DNA of 64,000 bases from Pseudomonadota bacterium (GCA_036344075.1 JAYYUJ010000024.1:99614-163613), one strand, 5' to 3'; positions 10,100 through 56,595 are shown, counted from the first letter of the stretch. Notes: a model not told the origin generated them from the letters alone. Translations and numbers: made by a program.

Positions 10100-11470
10100 T
10101 TGTTGAGGAAGTATATTTTGTTCCGTAAGTGGTTTGAAAAAAAAGACACAGCATCGTTAGCTGACGACAATTTGCCAGTAACTCAAAGCAACACTCATGC
10201 TGAAATGGCTGACTCTGAGCAACGGCAAGCTAAGAAATCACGACCACGGCGAAAAAAAAAGTTGGCGAAATCGCAATGGTCGTTAGCACAATTTCAAGTC
10301 CCTGAAAAAGAAGGTCAATCACGCTTTCATGATTTAGATTTGCCGCTTTCAATTATGCACGCGATTGCCGATTTGGGTTTTGAATATTGCTCGCCTATTC
10401 AGCAAGCGGTATTGCCCTATACACTTGACGGTTATGATGCGATTGGTAAGGCACAAACCGGTACCGGTAAAACAGCAGCTTTTCTTCTTACGGCCCTAAA
10501 TGATTTGTTGATTAACCCTATTGAAGATGAAAGGTTTATGGCTGAGCCTCGCGTTGTGGTTATTGCGCCGACTCGTGAGCTAGCTATGCAAATTGCGAAG
10601 GATGCACAAGATCTATCAAAATATACTGATCTCAATGTTGAAATGTTGATAGGTGGCGTTGATTATACAGGTCAATTGAAAAGAATACAGTCGCGTATTG
10701 TTGATATTGTGGTTGCTACTCCGGGCCGATTGATTGATTTCTTAACCCGTAATGATCTTAAACTTGATCAAGTTGAAATTTTAGTGATTGATGAAGCCGA
10801 TCGTATGCTTGATATGGGGTTTATTCCTCAAGTAAAGCGTATCGTTAGGGCTTGTCCGGTTAAGCAGAATCGTCAAACCTTGATGTTTAGCGCTACATTT
10901 ACCGACGATGTGCTAAGACTTACTGAGCAGTGGACTATTGATCCAGTTAAGATAGAGGTGGAGCCAGGTCGAGTCGCGGCAGATACAGTGAATCAAAAAG
11001 TCTATATGATTGCGGCTGAGGAAAAATTCACTGTGCTAAAAAATATTTTAAGTTCGGACGAAGTGAGCAGTGCCATTGTCTTTGCTAATCGACGTGATCA
11101 AACTCGCTGGTTATATGAGCGGCTTAGCAAAACTTCAGTGACCTGCGGCATGTTATCTGGCGAAGTTGCTCAGCAAAAAAGGACCTCAACTTTAAAGCGC
11201 TTCAAAGAAGGCAAGATAAAAGTATTGGTTGCTACGGATGTAGCCGGCCGTGGTATCCATGTGAATGGAATCAGTCACGTCATTAATTATAACTTACCAG
11301 AAGATCCTGAAGATTATGTTCATCGTATCGGTCGAACCGGTAGAGCAGGTGAGTCAGGCACATCCATTAGCTTGGCCTGTGAGGATGATGCATTTATGTT
11401 GCTTGATATTGAAGCTACACTGGGTCAAAAGCTCGAATGTAAACAGCCTCCTTCAAGCTATACGGAATAA
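10100..11470 (+). CDS. rhlB: DEAD-box ATP-dependent RNA helicase, RhlB-like
   Basis: Q-motif region FEYCSPIQ, Walker [25 protein letters not shown] (DEAD), [13 protein letters not shown]. The basic N-terminal extension and RFHDLDL resemble Pseudomonas RhlB. The TTG start is uncertain. Confidence 0.8.
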
Positions 11471-12355: not shown

Positions 12356-12436
12356 AATTGCAGATGGGTTTTATTAACAGAGGGTAAAGTTTCTTGATCG
12401 TATGGGTAAAAAAGTTTATTTAATTAGTCACTTAGC

Positions 12437-13099
12437 TCATTTATTTGGAGCAGGAGGTGGCCAACCACCCAAGGCTTTCCAGCGGTTAACTATGTAACAG
12501 AATAAGTCGGCAGTTTTTTCTGTGTCATAACGAGCCTTATGAGCATCCTCATTATCAAAGGGAATACCAGCTTCGAAGCAGGCTTTAGCGAGAACGGTTT
12601 GTCCTAGAGCTAAACCGGCTAAAGAAGCGGTATCGAAACTAGAAAAAGGGTGAAAAGGGCTGCGCTTAATTTCACAGCGTTCAGTGGCGGCATTCAAAAA
12701 ACTCTGATCAAAGGCCGCATTATGGGCAACAATAATGGCGCGCTTACAGCTCATCTTTTTCATTGCTTTGCGGATATGGCCGAATAAGTCGGTCAAAACC
12801 TCTGTTTCAGCTAATGATGGGCGCAGTGGATGGTCGGGTTTAATGCCCGTGAATTCCAGCGAGGCAGGTTCAATATTAGCCCCCTCAAAGGGTTTGACAT
12901 GATAACTATAAGTATCGCCAGGATAGACGTTACCAGTGTCATCCATGTGGATAATCGTTGCGGCAATTTCTAGCATTGCATCGGTGCTGGCATTAAAGCC
13001 GCCGGTTTCAATATCAATGACAACAGGTAAGTAGCCGCGAAATCTGTGTTCCATTGTATGCATATTTTTTGGTTCTTGGTGACTAATCTCGTTACTCAC
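12437..13099 (-). CDS. rnt: Ribonuclease T
   Basis: [41 protein letters not shown] (DEDDh exonuclease motifs). Near-colinear with E. coli Rnt. Overlaps the pyrC stop by 8 nt. Confidence 0.92.
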
Positions 13100-42831: not shown

Positions 42832-43728
42832 ATGAGAAATACCACGATTAACAGCGCTGGCCAATTAGCAAGCGTTCTTTTCATACTGTTATCACTAGGG
42901 CCAAGCTATATGTTTGCTTTGGGTCAGGTTGAAGTCGTTGAAGCTGAGTCAATGATTGTTCCTGCTGAGCGATACCCAAGGGACGGGTATTTTGATGCCC
43001 AACCTGATCAGCAGAGCAAAGCCCGGATTTTTGGTGATGCGACACCCACTGCAGTTTCCTCTATCGCTTCGGATGCAGACATACTTTTGCAACTTCAATC
43101 TTTGCAGGCCGAATTACGACAGTTACGTGGTTTAATAGAAGAGCAGCGTCATGAAATTGAAATGCTCGATCGAAAGCGTATTGATGATTACCTCGATCTA
43201 GATCATCGATTGAGTGTGGTTAACCAATCACAGGTTGAGGCTAAACCCGCGCCCGATAAAGAAGGGCTTAATTTTTCATTTGTTCCTATGGTCACAGCTC
43301 AAGCAACAGTCAATACGCTTGATCAAGCAGAAATGCCGCTTTCATTCGAGGAAGAGTCAAAGCAAGCTTACCGCGAATCTTACCAGTTAGTTAAAGACCG
43401 AGAGTTTGAGCAGGCGCAGGCTTCATTGGCGAGCTTTATTAAGCGTTATCCTAGTTCAAGTTATATACCGAACGCTTATTTTTGGTTGGGTGAGTTGCAG
43501 TACCTTGCGATGGAATTACCTTTATCTCGCGATTCTTTTTTGTCGTTAATAGAGCAATACCCAAAGCATAAGAAAGTGGCTGATGCGAAGTTTAAGTTAG
43601 GTAAAGTGTACCATCAGTTAGGTCAAGAAGCTAAGGCTAGAATTACGCTCGAATCCGTTCTTAGCGATCATGCTGGGAGTACGGCTGCCAATCCTGCACG
43701 CGAGTACTTAAACAGTAATTTGCGCTAA
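42832..43728 (+). CDS. cpoB: Cell-division coordinator CpoB (YbgF)
   Basis: Signal peptide, coiled-coil ([23 protein letters not shown]), and C-terminal TPR ([19 protein letters not shown]...KFKLGKVY). Position after pal. Confidence 0.88.
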
Positions 43729-43751
43729 TTATTGATTTAAAGACTACAATA

Positions 43752-43889
43752 ATGGCGCCATTTAAGCCCGTCTCTGTTGATTATCAAGCCAATGAAAGCG
43801 GTCAAGCCTGTGGGAAATGCGATAGTTGTTGGTTGCGTGCCGAAGGTTTTGAAGCTGCAGGGGTAGTTGATCCGACGCATTATTATTAA
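43752..43889 (+). pseudogene. queC: C-terminal remnant of queC (7-cyano-7-deazaguanine synthase), 45 codons
   Basis: The translation [45 protein letters not shown] carries the QueC C-terminal zinc-Cys cluster and tail (CG.CDSC.LR..GF..AG..DPT.Y). It begins 24 nt after the cpoB stop, so the roughly 180 N-terminal codons (PP-loop) and queE, which occupy this slot in pseudomonads, are absent. Confidence 0.7.
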
Positions 43890-44080
43890 AAAATACCGAG
43901 AATCTCTTTTTTCTAATAAATTTTTTTATTTACTAGAAAAAAGTCTTGTATTTTGTAGTTTGGTCGTTAATATAGCCACCTTCCTAGACGCATGTGATGC
44001 AATGAATTTGTGTTTTTCGGCACTTACCCTAAGTCAATTTCATTGAAATATGGTCATTATGTAGGTTTAAAAACAGTTCG

Positions 44081-44156
44081 GGGTCGTTAGCTCAGTTGGT
44101 AGAGCAGTTGGCTTTTAATCAATTGGTCGCTGGTTCGAACCCAGCACGACCCACCA
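44081..44156 (+). tRNA. tRNA-Lys (anticodon UUU)
   Basis: GGGTCGTTAGCTCAGTTGGTAGAGCAGTTGGCTTTTAATCAATTGGTCGCTGGTTCGAACCCAGCACGACCCACCA. The 7-bp acceptor stem GGGTCGT/ACGACCC, anticodon loop CTTTTAA, T-loop GGTTCGAA and encoded CCA are all present. Nearly identical to E. coli lysT. Confidence 0.97.
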
Positions 44157-44683
44157 ATTCCTTCATTTTCAGTCAATCTTCCCCTTTGATTGTTTCTTTG
44201 GCAATTCAAGTGTTTGGTGTGAACGTTCTTTTACGGTCAGATTCTAAAGAATCTATTGCTCTAACGATTTATTAGAATGCCTTTCAAATATAGATCAAAA
44301 ATTATACATCTCTAATGAGCAGTAACAACTAGCAAAAAATAATATGCGCGATCATTGTGTCAAAGCAGCTCGAATGATGATGTTTCTAATTAAAATTTTT
44401 GTGACGATATGTCTTTGAATTCGGTCTATGTAAACACTGGTATTAATCATCATGCACCAATATTTGCCGTTTATATTCCCACCATGGTATTTCCCCAACA
44501 GTGTTGCTGCTAATGATTAGCGATTTCTAATTTGAAATTGGACTACTAGTAGCCGTGGGTTTGAGCTATGTTTTTCACTACCTAACTAATGAGCAGGCGT
44601 AGCGTATTAAAAATTTTCTTTTTAGCGTCGCTGACATGCGGTATCATACATTAACTTAAATTCATTTCTTTGGAGATTTCTTA

Positions 44684-46804
44684 ATGGCATCAACAGAAAG
44701 CCAAGCTTCTGTGGGTAGTGAAGCTGCAAAGTCCGTCAATATTGGTTGGGTTTTGCGTGATATGATGCAGTCAACGGGTGTTTGGACCTTTGATCAGGCA
44801 GCATTAAGCCTGATGGTCAAACAAGCGCTGGCGGTGGGTTTCTCTAGTTTAGAAATTGGCGGTGGTCAGAGCTATCAAATTGCCTTAGAGCACGGTTTTA
44901 ATCCCTATCAAGTTATTCGAAATGCTAAGTGTGTTATTGATGCTGAGGGCGCTCGCTTGCCCCTGCAGATACTTATGCGTGGTGCAAATCAATTAGGCTT
45001 TCAACATTATGCTACCGATGTTCAGCAAAAAAGTATTGATTTGTTAGTGGATGCTGGCGGTGATAGCGAAAAAAATAATACCCTGATTATTCGCAACTTT
45101 GATGCTTTAAATGACGCTGAAAATCTTCGTTTCTCTATTTCATACATGGTGAAAAAAGATCAGCAGGCCGCTGCGGCTAATGCACTCGCGAACAGTAAAG
45201 GCCAACCGGCTTTAGCAAAGCGTGTGCATGTGCAAGCTGCCTTGTCCTATGTTCAGCCAGCGAATAACTCTAGCACAGCTTGCTACAGCAGCACTTACTA
45301 CGTCAATTATGCCAAAAAACTAATTGCTATCGCCGAGCAGGCCGGCGGCGGTTTGGACTCATTATGTATTAAAGACATGAGTGGCCAGCTGACACCCGCT
45401 TTGGCATTAGATTTAATCCCAGCACTTAAATCATTGGGCCTACCCGTTTATTTGCACTGTCATAGCACCGACGAAGCGCGTGCACTCGGTGTTCAGACGG
45501 TTGCGATTGAGGCTGGGATTAGTGGTATTGAAGTCGCTGTTGAGCCACTAGCAGGCGGCGCTTCGCATCACGATGTTGAAAATATCTGCTACTTAAAAGG
45601 CGTGATACCTACCAATGTCAAAGCGATTAAGGCCCTAAAAGCTAATCTTGCTGAGATTTTTGGTCCGCGTGCGCAGAGCCGACGAGACGCGGCCATTCCC
45701 TTGGTGACGTTAAAAAAATTGGTTAGCTTGGGAATTCCAGGCGGTGCTATTCCCTTTATTGTGAAAGACTTGCAGGCCAACGTCTGCGGTATGTTCGGGG
45801 TTGATCTCGACGAGGCACTGGTTTTATTTGAAGATGAATTACGCAGGATTCAAAGCCAATTAGGTTTTGTTCCTTTAGTGACACCCACCGCTGATATCAT
45901 TGCAAAGCAGACCATTAAAAGTTTGGGTAATCGTCAGCGTACGGCTGCTTATCAATTGGTTGATCCCAGATTCTGCCGTTTGGTACTCGGCCATTATGGC
46001 CAAGTGGTTAATCACGCAACAGATGAGCGGGTCGATGTGGCTGTTGAATTAATAGAAGAGGTTAAGCGGTATTGCGCCGCCATTGAGCAAGACGCCGACG
46101 GCTTTCGCAGCAAGGCAGGTCGTATTTTTCCCGAGCCCATTGTGCTGGCTGAACATCCTGCTTCGATTGCCATCGATCATGATGTTGCTGGGGTCGAAGA
46201 ATATGTCGGCGACTTATTCTCACGTTATCCACAATCCTGTGAAAATTTTGGTACGGTTCAAGAATGCTTGATGATGCATATTATGCGCCCAGCCGGTAAA
46301 ACGGATCGTTTATTGACAAAAAATATTTTACAGCCAACCGAAGAGCGCTTACGATTTATTCTTAATCAGACCTTGCATTTACTTCCGGGTAAGGACATAC
46401 CTGAATCGCGTCAGGCAGCCGCCGATGAGTTGACTGATGAGTTCTTGTTGGCAGCCTTGGGTGATTACGACGGTATTGTTAACAGCATTAAAGATTTAGT
46501 GCTTAACGGCGACAAAGAAAGTATTCGTCTGCGCATCAATCAACGAATGATTGAGGTCATAGATCCTATTTGTCAAACTAATGACGATGCACGCAAAAAT
46601 CGCTATTACATTGAAAGGCGTTTTGTCGGCCTTTTTGCAGGTGCTGTGTTTTGGGACTTACAGCGAATTTGTCGACGTACAGGGGCAGATTCACGCGCCT
46701 CGCTCGATGAGATGAGGGCCCGTAAGCTCGATCGTATTATCTCTACAACCCTCAAGCGTCGCCGTCGAGAAGGTGTGGGTCAGGCGCAAGATTTCCTCTC
46801 TTAA
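44684..46804 (+). CDS. PYC/OadA-type carboxyltransferase-domain protein with no biotinyl domain and a ~250-aa C-terminal region of unknown type
   Basis: By-eye alignment to the oxaloacetate decarboxylase alpha / pyruvate carboxylase CT domain: VLRDMMQS (RDAHQS), LEIGGG, LQILMRGANQLGFQHYATDV (LLRGQNLLGYRHY.DDV), IRNFDALND, CIKDMSG (carbamyl-Lys), LHCHST (HxH), and GFVPLVTPTADIIAKQ (PLVTPTSQIVG in the PYC_OADA domain). I found no AMKM/EAMKM biotin motif anywhere. Confidence 0.7.
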   Translation: MASTESQASVGSEAAKSVNIGWVLRDMMQSTGVWTFDQAALSLMVKQALAVGFSSLEIGGGQSYQIALEHGFNPYQVIRNAKCVIDAEGARLPLQILMRGANQLGFQHYATDVQQKSIDLLVDAGGDSEKNNTLIIRNFDALNDAENLRFSISYMVKKDQQAAAANALANSKGQPALAKRVHVQAALSYVQPANNSSTACYSSTYYVNYAKKLIAIAEQAGGGLDSLCIKDMSGQLTPALALDLIPALKSLGLPVYLHCHSTDEARALGVQTVAIEAGISGIEVAVEPLAGGASHHDVENICYLKGVIPTNVKAIKALKANLAEIFGPRAQSRRDAAIPLVTLKKLVSLGIPGGAIPFIVKDLQANVCGMFGVDLDEALVLFEDELRRIQSQLGFVPLVTPTADIIAKQTIKSLGNRQRTAAYQLVDPRFCRLVLGHYGQVVNHATDERVDVAVELIEEVKRYCAAIEQDADGFRSKAGRIFPEPIVLAEHPASIAIDHDVAGVEEYVGDLFSRYPQSCENFGTVQECLMMHIMRPAGKTDRLLTKNILQPTEERLRFILNQTLHLLPGKDIPESRQAAADELTDEFLLAALGDYDGIVNSIKDLVLNGDKESIRLRINQRMIEVIDPICQTNDDARKNRYYIERRFVGLFAGAVFWDLQRICRRTGADSRASLDEMRARKLDRIISTTLKRRRREGVGQAQDFLS

Positions 46805-46946
46805 TGAGTTTCATCTATACAAGCCTGCCAATTTACTGACTCTCTGGGTATATTTGCTGTAATGTGACTAGCAGCTGATTTCGCTTAAGCTATTTCTAAC
46901 TGTTTACTTTTCACCTTGCGTTAGGCTAATAATAAGGTCAGTCGCT

Positions 46947-49067
46947 ATGCAAACAAAAAAAACTTTTTGTTCTATTTGTTCTGCCTTTTGTGGATTTGAG
47001 GCTGAGGTAGAAGATAACCATATACTCTCTTTTCGTCCTGATACTAACCATCCGTTGAGTGAAGGCTTTAGCTGTACTAAAGGCCGGCAATTCCCCAATC
47101 TGTTAAAAACGAAAAATCGCTTGGTTAAGACGCTAAAACGGCAGGGCAAGGATTTCGTTCAACTAAAAAAAAGCGAAGCTTTAGATCAGATTTCCACGCG
47201 ATTAATGGCTATTAAAGACCAATATGGCCCTGAATCAATTGCTCTGTTTTCGGGTAACGGTGTGCAGTTTAAGGGGGCGACAGTCCCGGTGTTTCATGCG
47301 TGGCTGAATGCGCTTGGCTCGCACAATATGTTTAGCACAATGACAATTGATCAGCCGGCAAAAATCATTGCTACTGGTCGACACGGAGTGTGGGCGGGCG
47401 GCGTCCAGTCGTTTGAATCCTCGGACGTGGCAATATTGGTCGGCAACAATGTGGTCGTATCGAGTTTAAATCAGTTGAGCGGTCCACCGGGTTGGCGGCC
47501 TAAATCGATTAAGCAAGCGAAAAAGCGTGGTTTAAAACTCATAGTTATTGACCCGCGGTTGACCGAAACGGCACAACTTGCAGATCTTCATTTGGCGATT
47601 AGACCAGGGCAAGATGCCGTTTTATTAGCGGGCATGATTCGCCTGCTGATTCAGAAATCACTTTATGATCATGATTTTTGCCAGCAATACACTGATGACT
47701 TTGCCGCGCTTAAAGCGCAGGTTGAACCTTATGATCTTACCTTTGTGGCTCAGCAGTCAGGTGTTGAGGCAGCGCTAATTGAGCAAGCAGTTGATCTGTT
47801 TGGCGGCCAAAAACGTGGCTGTGTATCCAGTGGTACAGGGCCTGATATGGGGCCGCACCCTAATTTATCAGAACACTTGATCTGTGCCATGAATACCATA
47901 TGTGGTCGACATAATCGTGCTGGTGATAAGGTTAACACTTCTTTATTAACCCCAAATATGCCGCTGATGGAAGCGGTGATACCTTGGGATTGTCTTCCGC
48001 CAACACTTAATCTTCATACAAATAATCGACGATCTCGGATTGCTGACGCGAGGCAGGTGTATCAAGAGATGCCTAGCTCAACTTTAGCTGATGAAATTTT
48101 GACACCAGGTAAGGGGCAAATTAAAGCCTTAATCGTAATTGGCGGAAACCCCATGTTATCGTTACCAGACAAGGCCAAAATTAAAAAAGCCTTAAGTGCG
48201 CTTGACCTATTGATCTGTATTGACGTAAGGCGCACCGATACCACGGCATTGGCTGATTATATCTTGCCAGCCAGTTATGGCTTAGAACGGCCCGAAATCA
48301 CTAGCTATGCCGATTTTGTATTTGATAAACCTTTTCACCAGTTTGCCGAAAAACTCATCGAACCGCCTGGTGATGCGACTGAAGAGTGGATTTATCTTGC
48401 CGAGCTAGCTAAACGAATGGGCTTAGTGCTTGACTTGCCTGGAGGCCAAGTCGATAGTCAGCATTCGAATGAAGACTTTATTGGTCTGTTAGAGAAACTG
48501 TATCCTGCCGAGACAACTAAAGTGCCGATTGCCGAGATTGCGAGTCATCGTGGCGGCAAACTATATGAAGAATTTTCTAATGTGACTGTTATACCTGCTA
48601 TTGAAGGTATGGATGATAAATTTCAGCTAATGCCTGAGGGAGTGGCGCAGGAATTTGCGGTATTGGCGAAAACATTAGCGGATCAAGACAGTCGTGATGA
48701 TCGTTTTTTATTGATTTGCCGACGAAATAAATATGTTTACAATTCAATGTGTCATGAATTACCGAAGTCGGTCACCAGTAATCCTGTATACATGCATCCC
48801 GATGATATTCTCTCTGTCGGTGCAGAAGTGGGCGATAGGGTAGCGTTAGAATCTGATTTTGGAAAAATAATCGCTATGTTGTCTGCCGACGTGACCTTGC
48901 GGCGAGGCGTAGTTGCCAGTTCGCATAATTTTGGCGATGATAGCAATGGTCAAAATAATGAAAATTTTGCTTCGGTATCGGAATTGTTAAGTATGGAAAA
49001 CAGTAATGACAATTATGCCCGAATGCCGATAATGACAGCGGTACCTATTACGGTTGTTAGAGCTTAG
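46947..49067 (+). CDS. Cytoplasmic molybdopterin (Mo/W-bisPGD, MopB-superfamily) oxidoreductase with N-terminal [4Fe-4S] motif, FdhF-like architecture
   Basis: C8-x2-C11-x3-C15...C43-T-K-G cluster motif; colinear by eye with E. coli FdhF (715 aa). The C-terminal molybdopterin-binding barrel reads VYMHPDDILSVGAEVGDRVALESDFGKI. No Tat or Sec signal. Confidence 0.8.
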   Translation: MQTKKTFCSICSAFCGFEAEVEDNHILSFRPDTNHPLSEGFSCTKGRQFPNLLKTKNRLVKTLKRQGKDFVQLKKSEALDQISTRLMAIKDQYGPESIALFSGNGVQFKGATVPVFHAWLNALGSHNMFSTMTIDQPAKIIATGRHGVWAGGVQSFESSDVAILVGNNVVVSSLNQLSGPPGWRPKSIKQAKKRGLKLIVIDPRLTETAQLADLHLAIRPGQDAVLLAGMIRLLIQKSLYDHDFCQQYTDDFAALKAQVEPYDLTFVAQQSGVEAALIEQAVDLFGGQKRGCVSSGTGPDMGPHPNLSEHLICAMNTICGRHNRAGDKVNTSLLTPNMPLMEAVIPWDCLPPTLNLHTNNRRSRIADARQVYQEMPSSTLADEILTPGKGQIKALIVIGGNPMLSLPDKAKIKKALSALDLLICIDVRRTDTTALADYILPASYGLERPEITSYADFVFDKPFHQFAEKLIEPPGDATEEWIYLAELAKRMGLVLDLPGGQVDSQHSNEDFIGLLEKLYPAETTKVPIAEIASHRGGKLYEEFSNVTVIPAIEGMDDKFQLMPEGVAQEFAVLAKTLADQDSRDDRFLLICRRNKYVYNSMCHELPKSVTSNPVYMHPDDILSVGAEVGDRVALESDFGKIIAMLSADVTLRRGVVASSHNFGDDSNGQNNENFASVSELLSMENSNDNYARMPIMTAVPITVVRA

Positions 49068-49112
49068 ACGGCAAAAATAAAACTTCACTGACTGGGAATT
49101 GGAGACCGATCG

Positions 49113-49481
49113 ATGAGCGACAAAAGTCAAGCACAAATCCTTTTAGAACGCTATTGGGAAGAGGCCAGCAATCAAGGCAACTATGAGTTGGTACGTGAAT
49201 TGTGTGCCGATCCAATTATTCGTCATGATGTTGATGGTGGCGTGACAAAGTTAAGCCATGATGAACAAATTGCACGAGTAAAAATGGGCGTTGAAGATTT
49301 TGGTGTGCATATTGATCGTATCATTACCCATGCTGATGACACTTATGTGACATCTATTTGGGAGACTAAATCAGCTAAAGATGAAAATATGAATCTTTGC
49401 GGAATTGAAGTATTTAAAGTTGAAAATGGCCGTTTAGCCCATTGTTGGAATGCGCCTTACGGTAAAGGAAAGTGGGGATAA
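49113..49481 (+). CDS. SnoaL-like (NTF2-fold) small protein
   Basis: 122 aa; LLERYWEEASNQGNYELVRELCADPIIRHD...VENGRLAHCWN has the pattern of SnoaL/ester-cyclase-like proteins. GGAG lies 8 nt before the ATG, 45 nt after the Mo-enzyme stop. Confidence 0.55.
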   Translation: MSDKSQAQILLERYWEEASNQGNYELVRELCADPIIRHDVDGGVTKLSHDEQIARVKMGVEDFGVHIDRIITHADDTYVTSIWETKSAKDENMNLCGIEVFKVENGRLAHCWNAPYGKGKWG

Positions 49482-49532
49482 GGTATATAAGTAAGTATTT
49501 ACTTTTATATTATTCACTTATTTGTCTGGATT

Positions 49533-50552
49533 CTATTGCTTGTCAAGTGCTGAAATTAATTTTGTATTATCCAGCATTCGATTAGAAAATCCCCACTCAT
49601 TATCGTACCAAGCCAAAACTTTAACGGTATCACCAATGACTTTAGTCTGTGTTGCATCAAAAATTGAAGAGGCTGGATTGTGATTAAAATCTGTAGAAAC
49701 TAAAGGGAGATGGTTCACTGTAAGAATTTGGCTCATTTCATTTTCTGCAGCCCCAACCAAAAAATTGTTTACTTCATGCACAGTGGTACTTTTTTCAGCT
49801 GAAAATGTAAAGTCTATAAGAGATGTATTTATTACAGGTACCCTAACTGATAATCCATCCAGTTTTCCATTTAGTTCAGGTATAACCTCACCTATGGCGC
49901 TAGCTGCCCCTGTTTTTGTTGGAATCATTGATTGACTAGCTGATCTGGCACGTCTTAAGTCTGTATGGTAAACATCGGTTAAAACTTGATCGTTTGTATA
50001 AGCATGAATTGTCGTAGCGAGGCCTGAATTAATCCCTACCGTTTTATTTAAAACATGGGCTAAAGGTGCAAGGCAATTCGTCGTGCATGACGCGTTAGAG
50101 ATTATTCTATGGTCAGGGGTTAAAATGTGATCGTTTACGCCAAAAACTATAGTTGCGTCCGAATTAGTCGCAGGCGCAGATATAAGCACACGTTTCGCGC
50201 CTGCTTTGAGATGTTTTTCAGCATGCAGTCGACTTGTAAAATGCCCTGTGCATTCAAGGACTAGGTCGACGTTCATTTCAGACCAAGGGAGTTGGTAGGG
50301 TATCCTTTCAGATAGAATAGCGATCTTATCGCCATTAACGACTAAATCATTGTTTTTTAGAGTAACTTCTCCGGCGAAGCGACCATGTGCCGTATCATAC
50401 TGCATAAGATGGGCGTTAATTTCCGCATCGCCAAGATCGTTAACAGCAATAATCTTATATGGCAGTGATTCGCCTGAATTCAATCGCTCATAGTAAGCCC
50501 TGAGTATATTTCTACCGATACGACCAAAACCATTAATAGCAACTCGAAACAT
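49533..50552 (-). CDS. gap: Type I glyceraldehyde-3-phosphate dehydrogenase (GapB/Epd-like subgroup)
   Basis: [24 protein letters not shown] (catalytic Cys), [12 protein letters not shown]. Confidence 0.88.
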
Positions 50553-50673
50553 TTTTTCTCTCCACTGGTATTCTTAACCGAGCCATTCTGACGGGTAGAC
50601 AATTAAATTCTGCGGTACTAGAAGTGGTGGTGCTCGCCTAAATGTGAATGACATGGTGCGGTAACATTTCTAG

Positions 50674-50688
50674 GGTAATAAAATTACA
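50674..50688. promoter_or_regulatory. HexR-type operator palindrome 1 (gGTAAT-AAA-ATTACa)
   Basis: GGTAATAAAATTACA lies in the hexR-gap intergenic region, upstream of gap. It resembles the TGTAAT-N3-ATTACA operator described for gammaproteobacterial HexR. Confidence 0.6.
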
Positions 50689-50724
50689 TATATCGGTGTA
50701 CCTGTCCATTTATATAGCTATAAA

Positions 50725-50739
50725 TGTAATAAAATTACG
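50725..50739. promoter_or_regulatory. HexR-type operator palindrome 2 (TGTAAT-AAA-ATTACg)
   Basis: TGTAATAAAATTACG lies 51 bp from site 1. It shares the same 13-bp core GTAATAAAATTAC. Confidence 0.6.
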
Positions 50740-50819
50740 ATAAAAGTTGATTATTTGCTCATTTTCAGTAGTTTATATGTTTTAAGGTGTTCTGAGACGG
50801 CTATTATCGAGTTTAATAA

Positions 50820-51665
50820 CTAATTTTCTTTGGTGGTTTTTGTATTAGAGACGCTGCGTTTAACATCGATTAAATGAGAATAAAACTCATTTCCCATTTT
50901 TAACGCAGTGCCCGCGACAAGAATATCAATCAGTGAAAGCTGAGCGATGCGTGACGTCATCGGCGTATAAGTATCGGTATCCTCATCATTACCAACTTCG
51001 AGTACCTGCTGGCAATATTGTGCTAGCGGTGAGCCTTGACTGGTTAAGCCAAGAATATGAGCGCCGCTCTTAACGGCTAATTCTGCAGCCTCAATAATGA
51101 TACGTGTGCGACCCGTGTAAGAGATAAATACGGCAACATCTTCCTGATTAAGATTAGTTGCAGCAATACGTTGATTAAGCGCATCGACATGGGCGACCAC
51201 CGGTTTCTTAAATCGCATGAATTTATGTTGAGCATCAATGGCAACAGAACCCGATGCGCCGTGACCAAAAAAATAAATCGCACGGGCGGCGGTTAAAGCG
51301 GTGACGGCAGCCGTGATCGAGCTGATATCGCAAACATTTTGTGCCATAGTTAGACTGGCATGGGTAGAGTCAAAAACTTTGCTCACAACTTCGCTTAAGT
51401 TGTCGTCAAAATTGATGGTGCGACTAATCTTACCTCGACCACTGGCTAATTCACCGGCTAATTTAACTTTAAAATCAGGGTAACCTTTACAGCCTAACGC
51501 TCGGCAAAGACGATTGACCGTTGGCTCACTTACTTTAGCGCGTCTTGCTAGTTCAGCAATCGGTAAACTGACAGCGGCTTGCGGATCTTCGAGAATCTTA
51601 ATCGCAACAAAGCGGGCTGTTTTACTGAGTTGATCATGCTGATTTAGTTGGTGTAATAAGCTCAT
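50820..51665 (-). CDS. hexR: RpiR/MurR-family transcriptional regulator, HexR-like (HTH + SIS domain)
   Basis: N-terminal HTH_6 (IAELARRAKVSEPTVNRLCRALGCKGYPDFK) and a SIS domain (IYFFGHGASGSVA). Adjacent to gap and the palindromes above. Confidence 0.7.
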   Translation of the reverse strand: MSLLHQLNQHDQLSKTARFVAIKILEDPQAAVSLPIAELARRAKVSEPTVNRLCRALGCKGYPDFKVKLAGELASGRGKISRTINFDDNLSEVVSKVFDSTHASLTMAQNVCDISSITAAVTALTAARAIYFFGHGASGSVAIDAQHKFMRFKKPVVAHVDALNQRIAATNLNQEDVAVFISYTGRTRIIIEAAELAVKSGAHILGLTSQGSPLAQYCQQVLEVGNDEDTDTYTPMTSRIAQLSLIDILVAGTALKMGNEFYSHLIDVKRSVSNTKTTKEN

Positions 51666-51781: not shown

Positions 51782-53269
51782 CTACTCGGTCCGTGAAAGT
51801 GAATCAATCAAGCCAAGTTGATTGATATGGGCTTGCTTGCCAACTAAATTGCTGGCCAATGACTGAGCGATATGATCGGCATTTACGCTGTAACTGACGC
51901 TTCGCTGACCTTCAGGATACTGGCTGATAATAACCAGTTTTTGTGGTTGGTTTTTTTCAAATAAAACCGTGGCAGCAATAATTTCAACAGTGCCTGCTTT
52001 TGGCTCGATAAGTTCAAGTGCTTGTTGTTGTTCGTTTAGCTCATCAGTCACGTCATCGAAGATAAAGGGATTACGGTAACCGGCTGATGACCAGATGCCG
52101 TAACCTTGTTTGGTAAACATGCCGCTTACGCAACTGGCGATCGCGTAACTGCCTGGATTTTGACGAAGTAGCTGCGCCAATTTAACGGTGGCTTGTAAGC
52201 AGTAATTGTTTAACGGACCGCCGCCATAGGGCATGGCACCTGTAACGGTTAAATCTCTATCTTTAGGAATATTTAAGGCTTGTATATTTAAGTTAACAGC
52301 CGATGGGAAGCAGCTATAAAGATCAATAAAGTCTATCTCTTCAATCGTCAAGCCAGCAATATTTAAGGCACGTTGCCCCGCCATTTCTGCCGCTCTTGAC
52401 TTACCCAAATTTGGCCGCTGTGAAACATTAATAATTTGATTCGATTCAGTGCTAGCTAAGGGAAATATCCACTGTGATTCAGGAATACCGTATTCGCGTG
52501 CCTTGCTTACTGAGCAAAACAACAGGGCACAAGCTTGATCAACATTCCATTGGCTGTTGTGATGCTTTGCATAGGGAAACGCCAGCATGGCATTTTTATC
52601 ACCAGCATTACGAATATTCTCAGCAGTTAATGCGGACTCGGCCCAACCGTCAGGGTTACTAGCAGCGATTTCACTAAAGCGAGCGTAATGCGAGGCAATA
52701 TTGTCGCGATGTTGATCCATGCTAATACCTTGTTGATGACAAATAGCACTTTCGATCAAGGCATAATAACCAACCGGCATACCTAAGCCAGCCTTCGACT
52801 CAATTTCAGACCACAGTTCGGCTTCGGGTTGTAAAAAGGAATCGGGCTGGCTGTTATGTTGCTTTGTCTCGCTGGCTTCGACATTTTGAATCATCGCTTG
52901 TAATTGTCGGTACTTAGCCTCGCCGCCCACAACTAAAGCAACTTCAATATCGCTAGCGGCAATTTTTTTGCAAGCTTGGCCTAAGTTAGTTTGTTGAAGA
53001 ATGCCAAAGTCACAAAATTCGGTAACGGCATCATTTGCGCCTATCGCCTCGGCAATCAATGCCGCTGGATTGGTATACTGCCACATACCCTTGGGCACAC
53101 AAATATGATCGATTTGCTTTGCTATAGTAGGCGCTTGACTATCTTTTAACGCAGCGTTAACCGCATCAATCATTAGGGTGATAGGTTCTTTAGCTTTCGG
53201 AATGTTGATTTGCTTTTGCTGAACGGCGGCGACTGCCACTAAAACAGGTGCATTATTGGGTGGGTTCAT
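51782..53269 (-). CDS. Thiolase-like protein, TLP1 / SCP-x-like type, with an extra ~100-aa C-terminal domain
   Basis: 495 aa with a thiolase-fold pattern (IDFIDLYSCFPSAV, GAMPYGGGPLNNY) and no classical biosynthetic-thiolase Cys-His-Cys spacing that I can verify. The extended C-terminus is as described for TLP1-type proteins. Confidence 0.55.
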   Translation of the reverse strand: MNPPNNAPVLVAVAAVQQKQINIPKAKEPITLMIDAVNAALKDSQAPTIAKQIDHICVPKGMWQYTNPAALIAEAIGANDAVTEFCDFGILQQTNLGQACKKIAASDIEVALVVGGEAKYRQLQAMIQNVEASETKQHNSQPDSFLQPEAELWSEIESKAGLGMPVGYYALIESAICHQQGISMDQHRDNIASHYARFSEIAASNPDGWAESALTAENIRNAGDKNAMLAFPYAKHHNSQWNVDQACALLFCSVSKAREYGIPESQWIFPLASTESNQIINVSQRPNLGKSRAAEMAGQRALNIAGLTIEEIDFIDLYSCFPSAVNLNIQALNIPKDRDLTVTGAMPYGGGPLNNYCLQATVKLAQLLRQNPGSYAIASCVSGMFTKQGYGIWSSAGYRNPFIFDDVTDELNEQQQALELIEPKAGTVEIIAATVLFEKNQPQKLVIISQYPEGQRSVSYSVNADHIAQSLASNLVGKQAHINQLGLIDSLSRTE

Positions 53270-53320
53270 AAATTAATTGCTCATGGTTGTGGCTAAAATA
53301 CATTAACTTTAGATTATGGT

Positions 53321-54925
53321 TTATTGTGTTGGCCAATAACTATCACGAAGCTTTTTTCTTTGCACTTTACCAGCTTGGCTGCGTGGTAGTTCAGAAATAA
53401 AATCAATCGAACGAGGTATTTTTTGTTTAGCTAGATGCTTTGCGGTAAATTCAATGAGTTGCTCAGTCAACTCTGCCGAGGCAATCGTACCGGACTTAAG
53501 CTGTATAACGGCTTTAACTTCTTCGCCCCACTCAACGTTTGGTACGCCTATGCAAGCTGCATCTGCAACTGCATCATGCTTGATAAGAATATTATCAATT
53601 TCTTGAGGGTATATATTAACGCCACCACTGATGATGACCTCGGCGCTTCTTCCGGTTAAAAATAAAAAGCCATCTTCATCAAGATAGCCGATGTCACCGG
53701 CAGTAAAGTAGCCATTTTTGATAGCGCTTTCAGTTTTAGTCGGGTCTTTATAATAATTAAATTGGCTATTGGGTGGGTTGATTAAAAATAACTGGCCAGG
53801 CGTTGATCCTTCAACGGCCTGTCCATCATCATCTAAAATGCGAATTTGATCAGGACCGGGTTTGCCCACCGTGCCGGGCTTAGCAAGCCAATCCTGTGGA
53901 CTGACAATTGTGCCAGGTCCCTCGGTGCCGGCAAACATCTCCCAAATGATCGGGCCAAACCAGTCGAGCATTGCTTGCTTAGTTTCTATTGCGCAAGGTG
54001 CTGCACCATGAATGATAAATTTAAGAGAGCTGACGTCATACTGATCTTTGATAGATTGATCGAGTTTTAGCATTCGAACAAACATGGTTGGAACAAAAAA
54101 TGCGTGCGATATTTTATACTGCTCAATTAGTTTCAGCGTTTCCTCTGGATCCCATTTATCCATTAGCACGATACCTATGCCGGAGGTTAACGGGGTGGTC
54201 ATGCACAAATTAAACGGTCCTGAATGATACATCGGTCCCGGTGTTAATGCTTGGTCGAGTCCGGACTCTGTGTCGAATTGAAAAACGGCCGTTAATATTG
54301 CTTGCATATCTGCTGCTTTTGAGGGGTCAGGTTGTTCGCGGTAAACGCCTTTCGGTTTGCCAGTTGTTCCTGAAGTATAAAGCATGGTGTTTCCTAATAC
54401 TGGCTGACTAATATTGTCAGTATTTTCCTTTTTAAGCGTATTCCACTGATCAAATTTTTCGATCTTACCACCAATGGAAACTTTGACGATAAGCTGCTGA
54501 CTATGTTGTGCCGCAATAATGGCCGCTTGTTTGACTCTAGCGTCAGCAAATAAAGCTTTCGCGTCGCAGTTATCAATAATATAGGCGGCCTCTTCAGGTG
54601 CGAGATGCCAGTTGACAGGCGTTAAGCGAGCCCCTATTCGATGACAGGCAAACCGCACAGCAACAAATTCAATACGGTTGCTGCAAAGCAGTGCAACCGC
54701 GTCGCCTTCAGCAATGCCAGCACGTAATAAACGGTGGGCAATTTGATTGGTGAGTTGGTTGAGTTTCTTAAAGCTGATTTTTTCTGAACCAAAGGTAATG
54801 GCAATTCGATCAGGTGTTAATGCGGCAACAGCGGCAATTTCCATACCCACATGGGCATTGGCTTTCGCTGCTTCAAAGACACCTTTTCCATGATTATCCT
54901 GCAAAGGATTGAACGGTTTTGACAT
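53321..54925 (-). CDS. Acyl-CoA synthetase (AMP-forming, ANL superfamily)
   Basis: LYTSGTTGKPKGV (AMP-binding P-loop), GTEG, YFTAGDIGYLDEDGFLFLTGR, GKVQRKKL. Confidence 0.88.
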   Translation of the reverse strand: MSKPFNPLQDNHGKGVFEAAKANAHVGMEIAAVAALTPDRIAITFGSEKISFKKLNQLTNQIAHRLLRAGIAEGDAVALLCSNRIEFVAVRFACHRIGARLTPVNWHLAPEEAAYIIDNCDAKALFADARVKQAAIIAAQHSQQLIVKVSIGGKIEKFDQWNTLKKENTDNISQPVLGNTMLYTSGTTGKPKGVYREQPDPSKAADMQAILTAVFQFDTESGLDQALTPGPMYHSGPFNLCMTTPLTSGIGIVLMDKWDPEETLKLIEQYKISHAFFVPTMFVRMLKLDQSIKDQYDVSSLKFIIHGAAPCAIETKQAMLDWFGPIIWEMFAGTEGPGTIVSPQDWLAKPGTVGKPGPDQIRILDDDGQAVEGSTPGQLFLINPPNSQFNYYKDPTKTESAIKNGYFTAGDIGYLDEDGFLFLTGRSAEVIISGGVNIYPQEIDNILIKHDAVADAACIGVPNVEWGEEVKAVIQLKSGTIASAELTEQLIEFTAKHLAKQKIPRSIDFISELPRSQAGKVQRKKLRDSYWPTQ

Positions 54926-54954
54926 AAAAATACCTTGAGGCTGAGGTAGCTTTG

Positions 54955-55761
54955 TTACTTGCCTTTAAAATTGGGTTGACGTTTTTCTTTAAATGCTTTG
55001 TTTCCTTCGCGTGCATCTTGCGATAGTGTTGTTAGAGCTGACTGTTCCATTTCATAATGAAACGCATCCTCCCAATTCATGGTATGACTGGCTAATGCTG
55101 TTCTCTTAATAGCCTGCGTTGCAAGTGGGGCGAGAGCAGCTATTTGAGCAGCGGTTTGCTCAGCACGTTGCTGTAATTGATCCGCTGGACAGATTTCGCT
55201 AATTAGCCCAAACTCGAGTGCCTGCTGGGCATTAATGGGCTCACCGCAGAGTAATATTTTCATTGCATGTGCCCAAGGTAGCTGCCTTGCTAGGCGAACC
55301 GTTGATCCACCACCAGGAATTAGCCCAAGTTTAGGCTCGGGCAAGCCAAAAGTGGCATGTTCAGCCGCAATTCTGACATCAGTTGCTTGAAGAATTTCGC
55401 AACCACCGCCCAACGCGCGACCATTAACAGCAGCTAAGATAGGCTTATCAAATGGCGAGTGTTTGAGTAAGGTTTTATCCACTATTTCAGGATCGGCTAA
55501 TAATTTTTCTTCAATTTCATTTTCGGGTTTTTTAGTCCCCATCCAAATAGGGATTACGCTACTTAAGTCGCCACCACAACAAAAGTCAACGTCACCTGCT
55601 GCTGTTAATACCGCCACGCGGATATGATCATCGTCTTTAATTTCTTGCCAAGCTTCAGACAGGTCGACAAATATTTCTGCATTCAAAGTATTTTTAGCCT
55701 CAGGCCGATTCAATGTTAACCATGCGACGTGCTCTTTTTTTTCAAACAATAATGCGGCCAC
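54955..55761 (-). CDS. Enoyl-CoA hydratase/isomerase (crotonase family)
   Basis: VAWLTLNRPEAKN, FCCGGDL, AAVNGRALGGGCEI, and GLPEPKLGLIPGGGST (oxyanion hole and catalytic Glu region). Confidence 0.85.
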   Translation of the reverse strand: MAALLFEKKEHVAWLTLNRPEAKNTLNAEIFVDLSEAWQEIKDDDHIRVAVLTAAGDVDFCCGGDLSSVIPIWMGTKKPENEIEEKLLADPEIVDKTLLKHSPFDKPILAAVNGRALGGGCEILQATDVRIAAEHATFGLPEPKLGLIPGGGSTVRLARQLPWAHAMKILLCGEPINAQQALEFGLISEICPADQLQQRAEQTAAQIAALAPLATQAIKRTALASHTMNWEDAFHYEMEQSALTTLSQDAREGNKAFKEKRQPNFKGK

Positions 55762-55800
55762 GAATGTTTCCTTTTTCAGTATTAGAATCGATTTTTTTGC

Positions 55801-56595
55801 TTAGTCAAAAGCTCCAGGCATTTGCATATTTAAAGCATTTAAGCCACCGTTAACGGCGATCACGTCGCCAGTCAAATAAGCTGAGGCAGGCGAAGCTAAA
55901 TATAGAGCGCAGGCCGATATATCCTCCACTTCACCCAGTCTTGCCATGGGTGTTAAGCGAACCATATTGGTTTCAACTTCTGCCGTTAAAACGCTTTCAA
56001 GTGCTTGTGTTTTAGTTGAGCCAACCCCAATCGCATTGACACGAATCTTAGGTGCAAATTCCTGTGCTAATTCTTTCGTTAAAAAACTTAACGAAGATTT
56101 CGCTACGCCATAGGCTGCAAATTGGGAGCAAGGCTCTTTGCCCGCTACGGAAGAAATATTAATGATAGACCCTTCGCCTGCCGTTTCAACCATTTTGGGA
56201 ATCGCTAGTTGTGAGCAAACAAAAGCACTAGTCACATTAAAGCGAAAGTTACCTTCAAATTCTTTTACCGATGTTTTTAATGTGGGTTTAGGTGGTGTAC
56301 CGCCGCCCGCATTGTTGACTAGAATATCAATTCTGCCAAAGGTCTCAACAGCTGAGTTAATGAGATTTTCGCAGTCCTCAGCAACCATAACATCTAATTT
56401 TACAATTTTTGCTCGGCGCCCCATCGCTTCTATTTCGCTCGCAACGGATTCTAGCTCGCTGATGGTTCTAGCGCCGATAACTACATCTGCGCCTGCTTCG
56501 GCAAAGGCTTTTGCACAGGCAGCCCCAATGCCGCGACCTGCACCGGTTACAACTGCTACTTTTCCATCAAGACGAAATTTATCTAAAATGCTCAT
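55801..56595 (-). CDS. SDR oxidoreductase (FabG / 3-hydroxyacyl-CoA dehydrogenase-like)
   Basis: VAVVTGAGRGIGAACA, NNAG, SSVAG...YGVAKSS (S-Y-K triad). Confidence 0.85.
   Translation of the reverse strand: MSILDKFRLDGKVAVVTGAGRGIGAACAKAFAEAGADVVIGARTISELESVASEIEAMGRRAKIVKLDVMVAEDCENLINSAVETFGRIDILVNNAGGGTPPKPTLKTSVKEFEGNFRFNVTSAFVCSQLAIPKMVETAGEGSIINISSVAGKEPCSQFAAYGVAKSSLSFLTKELAQEFAPKIRVNAIGVGSTKTQALESVLTAEVETNMVRLTPMARLGEVEDISACALYLASPASAYLTGDVIAVNGGLNALNMQMPGAFD

Follow-up and report, generated by a model that had tools for sequence, protein, structure and literature searches.

Three tandem open reading frames (ORFs) on the plus strand, here called g1, g2 and g3, make up the locus studied in the window (the whole 64,000-nucleotide stretch of DNA that was analysed). 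These genes and the features that flank them are listed below in positions of the window.

44081-44156: tRNA-Lys(UUU), upstream of g1
44157..44683, plus strand: AT-rich leader of 527 bp, from tRNA-Lys to g1
44684..46804, plus strand: g1, 706 aa, PYC/OadA/5S-type carboxyltransferase-fold protein
46805..46946, plus strand: g1-g2 intergenic spacer, 142 nt
46947..49067, plus strand: g2, 706 aa, soluble enzyme of the Mo/W-bis(pyranopterin guanine dinucleotide) type, [4Fe-4S] site at the N terminus
49113..49481, plus strand: g3, 122 aa, NTF2/SnoaL_2-fold protein
49533..50552, minus strand: gap, type I GAPDH gene in convergent orientation to the trio (Pfam; NCBIfam TIGR01534, 406.8 against a cutoff of 367.2)
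50674-50688 and 50725-50739, strand not given: two HexR-box-like palindromes upstream of gap
50820..51665, minus strand: hexR, RpiR/SIS regulator (NCBIfam HexR NF008451, 308.9 against a cutoff of 296)

The ORF coordinates are exactly those of the original prediction, with 142 nt separating g1 from g2 and 45 nt separating g2 from g3, and the leader that it described as AT-rich has a GC content of 34.2%, as compared to 43.9% for the whole 64-kb window. Each gene also has the ribosome-binding sequence claimed for it, in the form of GGAG/AAGG Shine-Dalgarno-like motifs 8–13 nt 5′ of each ATG. The tRNA-Lys upstream of the leader is kept in relatives (blastn), and it was the sole match in an Rfam scan of positions 43600–51000, which returned no Moco or other riboswitch. 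The ORFs scanned from 27.7 to 64 kb (110 aa or longer) included no genes for biotin carboxylase, Biotin_lipoyl proteins, ferredoxin, flavoprotein or cytochrome, in agreement with the earlier statement that neither biotin-dependent partners (biotin carboxylase, BCCP) nor electron-transfer subunits are encoded nearby.

No terminator-like hairpin was found in the g1-g2 or g2-g3 spacer of the window, and because of this, co-transcription of the trio in this strain is possible as a prediction from sequence. The g1-g2 spacer folds more weakly than shuffled sequence (z = +1.59) and contains a weak promoter-like element, CTGCCA-18-TATATT, at 46825–46854, together with a TATATTTGCTGTAATGTG block that is conserved among near relatives only. 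The two palindromes before gap each have one mismatch to TGTAATNNNATTACA and are the only HexR sites with at most one mismatch in the 64 kb. Control of g1 by HexR was considered and rejected: the best site in the leader has at least three mismatches, which is chance level, and the good sites belong to gap.

The product of g1 descends from biotin-dependent carboxyltransferases (CT) of the pyruvate carboxylase, oxaloacetate decarboxylase alpha or transcarboxylase 5S type. Pfam returned no family for it at E≤1e-3, but NCBIfam recognised it as an OadA/PycB/5S-type carboxyltransferase at 155–158 bits, and sequence search of the PDB matched 2nx9 (2.7e-31) and 5ks8 (6e-29). The AlphaFold model (pLDDT 91.7) found 5ks8, 1rqb and 2nx9 at the top of a Foldseek search, with E of about 1e-21 and a TM score of 0.84 normalised to 2nx9, the OadA CT domain. 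With Vibrio cholerae OadA (2nx9), PycB (5ks8) and transcarboxylase 5S (1rqb) it shares a TIM barrel and C-terminal funnel (residues ∼18–455), as well as the Asp, carbamylatable Lys and His-x-His metal ligands, an Arg/Gln/Arg site for the 2-oxo-acid, and the VTPT motif including its Thr. Asp26, Lys230, His258 and His260 align to the Zn ligands D17, K178, H207 and H209 of 2nx9; the counterpart of Lys230 is carbamylated in these relatives. The metal/2-oxo-acid site is complete (Asp26, Lys230, His258, His260, Arg25, Gln29, Arg99 and Thr400), and in 50 homologues Lys230, His258, His260, Gln29 and Arg99 are invariant while Arg25 and Asp26 are conserved in at least 90%.

Unlike these enzymes, to which its identity is only 20–23%, g1 has neither an association nor a biotinyl domain and carries instead a family-specific, all-helical C-terminal domain of about 250 aa (residues ∼456–706), the 251 aa of which had six matches in 1.84e9 representative proteins, all in the same family. 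The claim that g1 is a carboxyltransferase devoid of a biotin carrier was borne out, as neither a Biotin_lipoyl domain nor an MKM/MKL-type biotinylation motif was detected in it. It also differs from OadA and PycB in not being encoded with beta/gamma pump subunits or with biotin carboxylase. Two family-invariant changes, GY to GF106 and VTPTS(Q/K) to VTPTA403-D404 (Phe for Tyr, and Ala-Asp for Ser-Gln/Lys), fall in motifs that, from PC structures, we take to line the biotin pocket in PC/OadA. These observations bear on whether g1 could be an ordinary biotin-dependent CT subunit of a variant two-subunit pyruvate carboxylase or oxaloacetate decarboxylase, with carboxybiotin delivered by a BCCP/biotin carboxylase whose gene lies elsewhere. 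Although the intact fold, funnel and metal/pyruvate-binding residues would suit such a role, we regard it as very unlikely, given the lack of a BCCP domain or motif in cis or among the neighbouring ORFs, the presumed biotin-pocket substitutions, the absence of a BC/BCCP neighbour at any solitary homologue examined, and NCBIfam scores that fall far under every equivalog cutoff for OadA, PycB and 5S (oadA, 155 bits vs a cutoff of 756.5; PycB, 144–158 vs cutoffs of 402–734). More probably, g1 is an autonomous unit and a biotin-independent 2-oxo-acid enzyme. Judging from its conserved residues, it would most likely work by itself, making or consuming a pyruvate-type enolate in a reaction that depends on a metal and not on biotin, and our leading guess is a decarboxylase or lyase acting on oxaloacetate or a related 2-oxo-dicarboxylate.

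The assignment of g2 as a cytoplasmic, single-subunit Mo-bisPGD enzyme held up, with matches above the cutoffs to PF00384 Molybdopterin (116.9), PF01568 Molydop_binding (40.0) and PF04879 Molybdop_Fe4S4 (49.2), and no twin-arginine motif in the protein. Like acetylene hydratase (Pelobacter acetylenicus, 2e7z) and the FdhF-type formate dehydrogenases (1aa6, 7qv7, 9t1s), g2 is a single soluble bisPGD subunit of ∼700 aa that has an N-terminal Cx2Cx3C...C [4Fe-4S] site followed by a conserved Lys (C8, C11, C15, C43 and K45, all invariant in the family), and that has neither a Tat signal nor a dedicated partner gene. Also invariant in the family is D135-Q136, within a TIDQPAK motif, which aligns to the Sec/Cys-His of formate dehydrogenases (F420-FDH and Methylobacterium FDH), whereas against acetylene hydratase and HDCR FdhF the ligand position can be aligned only to within 0–2 residues. 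The invariant Asp is predicted to occupy the metal-ligand position.

In the PDB, g2 best matches acetylene hydratase (2e7z, with a profile E-value of 4e-72) and formate dehydrogenases of the FdhF type, and a relative with 48% identity in Halioglobus japonicus is named ‘Acetylene hydratase’, so that g2 might be taken for an orthologue of a known enzyme (acetylene hydratase, formate dehydrogenase H or assimilatory nitrate reductase). We consider this extremely improbable. In acetylene hydratase, W is coordinated by a Cys, and the catalytic Asp13 comes directly after the second cluster Cys; g2 has Asp or Thr, not Cys, at the ligand position, and its Cys11 is followed by Ser12 (S, T or Q among family members) rather than by the catalytic Asp. 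Formate dehydrogenase is contradicted by the Asp135-Gln136 pair in place of Sec/Cys-His, and all equivalog cutoffs are missed by a wide margin (Fdh-alpha TIGR01591, 225 vs 666; NasC, 171 vs 1100). Over 1000 proteins fall into the g2 family at E<1e-40, with sequences from Nocardioides, Mycobacterium, Halieaceae, Oceanicoccus, Binatia and Acidimicrobiia, and the family is currently mis-named in some databases. The lack of a partner gene is the normal state of this family and is not peculiar to the present locus; g2 would use general cellular redox carriers or carry out non-redox chemistry.

The third protein, g3, is small and has the NTF2 fold, as had been proposed, and is either an enzyme or a binding protein. 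It matches SnoaL_2 in Pfam with 29.0 bits (cutoff, 27) and falls under the 28.4 cutoff of SnoaL PF07366 with 23.2. Its model (pLDDT 94.4) predicts the alpha+beta cone fold of the SnoaL_2/NTF2 superfamily, which includes SnoaL-type cyclases, ketosteroid isomerase and limonene epoxide hydrolase. All 388 Foldseek matches in the PDB at E≤1e-3 are NTF2-like, with identities of at most 22%, and they are generic (NTF2-like, SnoaL-like, ketosteroid-isomerase or LEH-type) and give no functional pointer. Unlike the solved members, g3 has its own invariant set (CADPIxRHD, HDEQIAR, CGIEVF and CWN-PY), and its family, with relatives in Acidimicrobiales, Myxococcota and Halieaceae-like gammaproteobacteria, shows 56–98% identity between phyla and 22 invariant positions.

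No pathway has been assigned to the family of any of the three proteins, and a literature search on the gene combination found no characterised pathway or paper, in line with the earlier statement that no known pathway joins them; searches on biotin-independent CT-domain enzymes, AH-like Mo enzymes and Rv0197 likewise returned nothing relevant. The further proposal, that the trio forms one undescribed system, is weak, and comparison with other genomes partly yielded the result that the proposal had named as its own refutation. The trio is kept together with gap and hexR in four lineages of one narrow gammaproteobacterial clade, namely the window, L102 (g1 97% identical), L095 (90%) and L001 (67%), but arrangements with g1 and g2, with g1 only, with g2 only and with g3 only occur as well. 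Loci L091/L092 have g1 and g2 and lack g3, and in at least eight loci (L085-87 and L096-L100) g1 stands alone, 36–50 nt from the gap of a gap-hexR pair, an interval too short for g2 or g3. At all clade loci gap adjoins g1, g2 or g3.

Outside the clade each family was found by itself, in a handful of contexts sampled per family, where solitary means by local neighbourhood. Relatives of g1 at 54–59% identity occur alone in three unrelated contexts, and in Verrucomicrobia and a further contig set, where the relatives are 30–35% identical, the gene is likewise solitary. A scan of species-representative genomes with the g1 family alignment, for which the back-translated motifs were generic, returned among the matches listed ordinary OadA/PycB genes, from Firmicutes and other groups, as well as L005-L008, four relatives from Verrucomicrobia; two of the four served for the Verrucomicrobial context comparison. 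Both g1 and g3 are absent from four sampled contexts of g2 relatives outside the clade. Sulfotransferase genes were seen near relatives of g2 and g3, and we take this as probable coincidence.

Relative to the window, the identities of g1 and g2 run in parallel (97/96, 90/86, 71/68 and 67/64%), and because they track each other, the sequences indicate that the two genes were vertically co-inherited and then lost in some lineages. In an NJ tree of g1 (without support values), the g1-only group and the g1+g2 lineage are sisters and branch from within the trio lineages, and L001, which has the trio, is basal. Because the g1+g2 and g1-only lineages nest inside the trio clade in this way, the tree suggests that loss within the clade was stepwise. 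In this history g2 and g3 would have been inherited with g1 in one clade and then shed, g3 first and g2 afterwards, while g1 persisted.

We therefore lean toward reading the locus as three orphan genes with independent distributions, whose juxtaposition is restricted to one lineage, and not as an obligate three-component system. On this view g1 is best seen as autonomous and g2 with g3 as dispensable accessory genes. Since g1 persists after the loss of g2 and g3, and g2 after the loss of g3, g1 would need neither of the others and g2 would not need g3. It is unlikely, by comparison, that g1-g2-g3 is a true operon for one new pathway, in which a biotin-independent (de)carboxylation by g1 would be combined with a Mo-dependent, possibly non-redox step by g2 and an NTF2-type isomerase or cyclase step by g3. 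The single strand, the short intervals and the lack of a terminator are what such an operon would show, the order g1-g2(-g3) is held in four lineages down to 64–67% identity, close g2 orthologues (at least 64% identity) had g1 immediately upstream in every context seen, and with all three families uncharacterised nothing contradicts a shared substrate. However, the flanking gap-hexR pair is equally syntenic, so that descent accounts for the conserved gene order; in L091 and L001 the g1-g2 interval contains GC-rich hairpins; the clade includes nested variants that have g1 but lack g2 and g3, or have g1 and g2 but lack g3; and each family is otherwise solitary in the sampled contexts. Cooperation of the three within this clade after all appears distinctly unlikely: the biotin-independent, CT-derived g1 would make or consume a 2-oxo-acid or enolate, the Asp-ligated Mo (or W) enzyme g2 would hydrate, hydroxylate or reduce it, and the NTF2 protein g3 would isomerise it, the g1-only lineages then representing decay to a residual g1 function.

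Unlikely, too, is a division into two units, with g1 autonomous and g2 and g3 forming a small functional pair (a Mo enzyme and an NTF2 helper or second enzyme) that lies downstream by chance. The interval of just 45 nt, the position of g3 after g2 in the window, L095, L102 and L001, and the overlap between the phyla with g3 relatives and those with g2 relatives are consistent with a pair, but L091/L092 keep g2 without g3, no g3 homologue was found within 8 kb of the g2 relatives L093, L094 and L106-L109, and a g3 homologue with 66% identity in an Acidimicrobiales genome (L110) lies beside an RPE65-type oxygenase, with no Mo enzyme near. Two observations run counter to simple juxtaposition. The g1-g2 order is held down to about 65% protein identity, which some functional coupling in the clade would explain, and the window has no terminator between g1, g2 and g3.

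The trio is not a conserved system, so we would not place it among candidate new pathways unless transcript or genetic data were to speak for it; g1 and g2 remain useful leads individually. The natural loss series, from the trio through g1+g2 to g1, provides ready-made comparators. The g2 protein is a lead into a large, widespread and unstudied clade of soluble Mo/W enzymes, in which a predicted Asp at the metal-ligand position of a scaffold like that of FDH and acetylene hydratase is an unusual combination. The g1 family is very rare, and in it the CT scaffold seems to have been turned into a stand-alone enzyme, which would bear on how the DRE-TIM/carboxyltransferase fold can work without biotin.

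A literature search found no paper on the combination of g1 (a PYC/OadA/5S-type carboxyltransferase-fold gene), g2 (a Mo/W-bisPGD enzyme gene) and g3 (an NTF2/SnoaL_2 gene), which the original prediction took for the operon of one undescribed metabolic system. The genes are real and the prediction is partly supported, but a new pathway is unsupported, as the trio is broken up in some relatives. On balance we favor reading the three as orphan genes that can be separated, rather than as an obligate system; that they form a genuine pathway specific to the clade is improbable.

44684-46804, + strand: g1, ORF of 706 aa
46947-49067, + strand: g2, ORF of 706 aa
49113-49481, + strand: g3, ORF of 122 aa
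44081-44156: tRNA-Lys(UUU)

The predicted layout was borne out: the ORFs share a strand, with spacers of 142 nt (g1-g2) and 45 nt (g2-g3), a GGAG/AAGG motif 5' of all three start codons, and a 527-bp AT-rich leader after the tRNA (34% GC versus 44% in the window). The expected absence of biotin carboxylase, BCCP, ferredoxin, flavoprotein and cytochrome also held among ORFs of at least 110 aa from 27.7 to 64 kb. Because neither spacer contains a terminator-like hairpin and promoter-like sites in the region, including a weak one at 46825-46854, occur only at chance level, co-transcription of the trio in the window strain is possible. The g1-g2 spacer folds more poorly than shuffled sequence, and a search for a riboswitch found none. 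GC-rich hairpins absent from the window lie in the equivalent spacer of two relatives' loci, L091 (∼7895-7960) and L001 (∼10180-10200) (GCGCGCAC...GTGCGCGC and GGTGGCC..GGCCACC), and might represent REP-like elements or terminators. Apart from two palindromes (50674-50688 and 50725-50739), each one mismatch from TGTAATNNNATTACA, no site in the 64 kb comes within one mismatch of the HexR box; the two lie between hexR (an RpiR/SIS regulator gene) and gap (a type I GAPDH gene convergent with the trio), on the upstream side of gap rather than of g1.

The prediction would fall if the trio did not stay together in related genomes, and this refutation applies in part: adjacency is kept in some relatives and lost in others.

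Arrangement of the genes in the clade, from tblastn and called genes (g1 identity to the window in brackets)
g1-g2-g3, then gap-hexR: window, L102 (97%), L095 (90%), L001 (67%)
g1-g2, then gap-hexR, no g3: L091/L092 (71%)
g1 alone before gap-hexR, g1-gap distance just 36-50 nt: L085-87, L096-L100 (73-74%)

The g1-only loci come from several independent metagenomes. Compared with the window, g1 and g2 diverge in step (97/96, 90/86, 71/68 and 67/64% identity), which indicates vertical inheritance of the pair. A neighbor-joining tree of g1 (without support values) pairs the g1-only group with the g1+g2 lineage as sisters and places both inside trio-bearing lineages, with L001 basal. The most parsimonious history is stepwise loss from an ancestral trio, in which g3 would have gone first and g2 next, with g1 kept throughout.

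The surrounding gene order, tolB-pal-cpoB-(queE-queC)-tRNA-Lys-...-g1...gap-hexR-...-nadA-M48 peptidase, is the same in L085, a related marine genome. A deletion in the window genome (site 43729-44080) has removed queE and the greater part of queC, leaving at 43782-43883 the last ∼34 codons of queC, 76% identical to residues 201-234 of L085 QueC; two loci with 94-95% g1 identity (L103 and L104) carry about 1287 additional bases exactly at this point. As the flanking alignments overlap by 7 nt, the deletion may have been microhomology-mediated. The GAPDH protein (49533-50552, − strand) is only 77-78% identical to those of L102 and L095 while g3 (95-98%) and hexR (92-96%), which flank it, are near-identical, suggesting allele replacement or recombination limited to gap. 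The hexR-nadA interval looks like a variable island, since the window has four lipid-type genes there (51782-56595, − strand: thiolase-like PRK08257, acyl-CoA synthetase, enoyl-CoA hydratase and SDR) and L085 a multihaem/TPR protein gene.

Outside the clade, the three families are independent, judging from the neighborhoods sampled. Relatives of g1 at 54-59% identity occupy three unrelated neighborhoods, one in Glaciecola sp. SC05, and more distant ones are solitary too. Where g2 relatives were sampled, in Nocardioides, Halieaceae and two further genomes, neither g1 nor g3 occurs within 8 kb of them, and an Acidimicrobiales g3 relative (66% identity) adjoins an RPE65-type oxygenase gene and a second SnoaL gene. 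Sulfotransfer_3 genes lie no more than a few kb from the Nocardioides and Halieaceae g2 relatives (L093 2251-5490; JGI contig of P0097) and from the Acidimicrobiales g3 relative (L110 4892-6028), and in L106-L109 APH-type kinase genes (PF01636) either immediately precede g2 relatives or lie close to them; these neighbors may reflect chance.

The identification of g1 as a carboxyltransferase-fold protein was upheld, although no Pfam family matched at E≤1e-3 and NCBIfam matches to OadA/PycB/5S were weak (155-158 bits versus cutoffs of 402-756). Among PDB sequences it matched OadA 2nx9 at 2.7e-31, and its AlphaFold model (pLDDT 91.7) matched the OadA CT domain in Foldseek (E about 1e-21, TM 0.84 normalized to target length). 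D26, K230, H258 and H260 align with the 2nx9 Zn ligands (the last three invariant and D26 at least 90% conserved among 50 homologues), and with R25, Q29, R99 and a VTPT motif, all residues defining the catalytic center of PYC/OadA/5S carboxyltransferases are kept. As predicted, neither a biotinyl domain nor an MKM-type motif was found; what is established for g1 is a carboxyltransferase fold whose metal/2-oxo-acid site is intact and which lacks a carrier domain. Two motifs differ family-wide from PC/OadA, GY to GF106 and VTPTS(Q/K) to VTPTA403-D404; both line the biotin pocket in PC/OadA, and the functional meaning of the changes is a lead only. Residues ∼456-706 are modeled with confidence as an all-helical domain; used as the sole query against 1.84 billion representative proteins, it gave only six matches, all from the same family. 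That family is a small one, with some 43 clusters at 52-97% identity and some 20 more at 28-35%; sources that name its members call them "hypothetical protein" or, less strictly, "oxaloacetate decarboxylase alpha". Tentatively, g1 would act alone and biotin-independently, stabilizing a pyruvate-type enolate, most simply as a decarboxylase/lyase of oxaloacetate or a related 2-oxo-dicarboxylate, and the helical domain would possibly replace the carrier at the funnel.

Pfam confirmed the three Mo-bisPGD domains of g2, which carries a Cx2Cx3C...C cluster motif and conserved Lys45 and lacks a twin-arginine signal; it is a soluble Mo/W enzyme. In 3 of the 5 alignments examined, Asp135-Gln136 of its invariant TIDQPAK motif falls where formate dehydrogenases have their Sec/Cys-His pair; against acetylene hydratase and HDCR FdhF there is an ambiguity of 0-2 residues. 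The Asp is a probable metal ligand. Unlike acetylene hydratase, g2 has no Asp after the second cluster Cys. It falls below every NCBIfam equivalog cutoff and belongs to a large family (>1000 proteins at E<1e-40), with relatives at 40-57% identity in Nocardioides, Mycobacterium, Halieaceae, Oceanicoccus, Binatia and Acidimicrobiia, a Mo-enzyme clade so far unstudied. Because sampled members outside the gammaproteobacterial clade lack a dedicated partner gene, g2 may use general redox carriers or non-redox chemistry.

The SnoaL_2 assignment of g3 was likewise confirmed by Pfam, and its predicted structure is a confident NTF2 cone. Conservation in the family is unusually high: members from gammaproteobacteria, Myxococcota and Acidimicrobiales are 56-98% identical and share 22 invariant residues, with the invariant motifs CADPIxRHD, HDEQIAR, CGIEVF and CWN-PY in the family alignment, A5. 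The L001 g3 (12396-12764) is 88% identical to that of the window, versus 56-70% for L001 g1, g2, gap and hexR.

None of the three passed a named-enzyme equivalog test; all belong to uncharacterized subfamilies of known superfamilies. Taken singly, g1 is a novel variation on the carboxyltransferase scheme, and g2 represents an unstudied Mo-enzyme clade.
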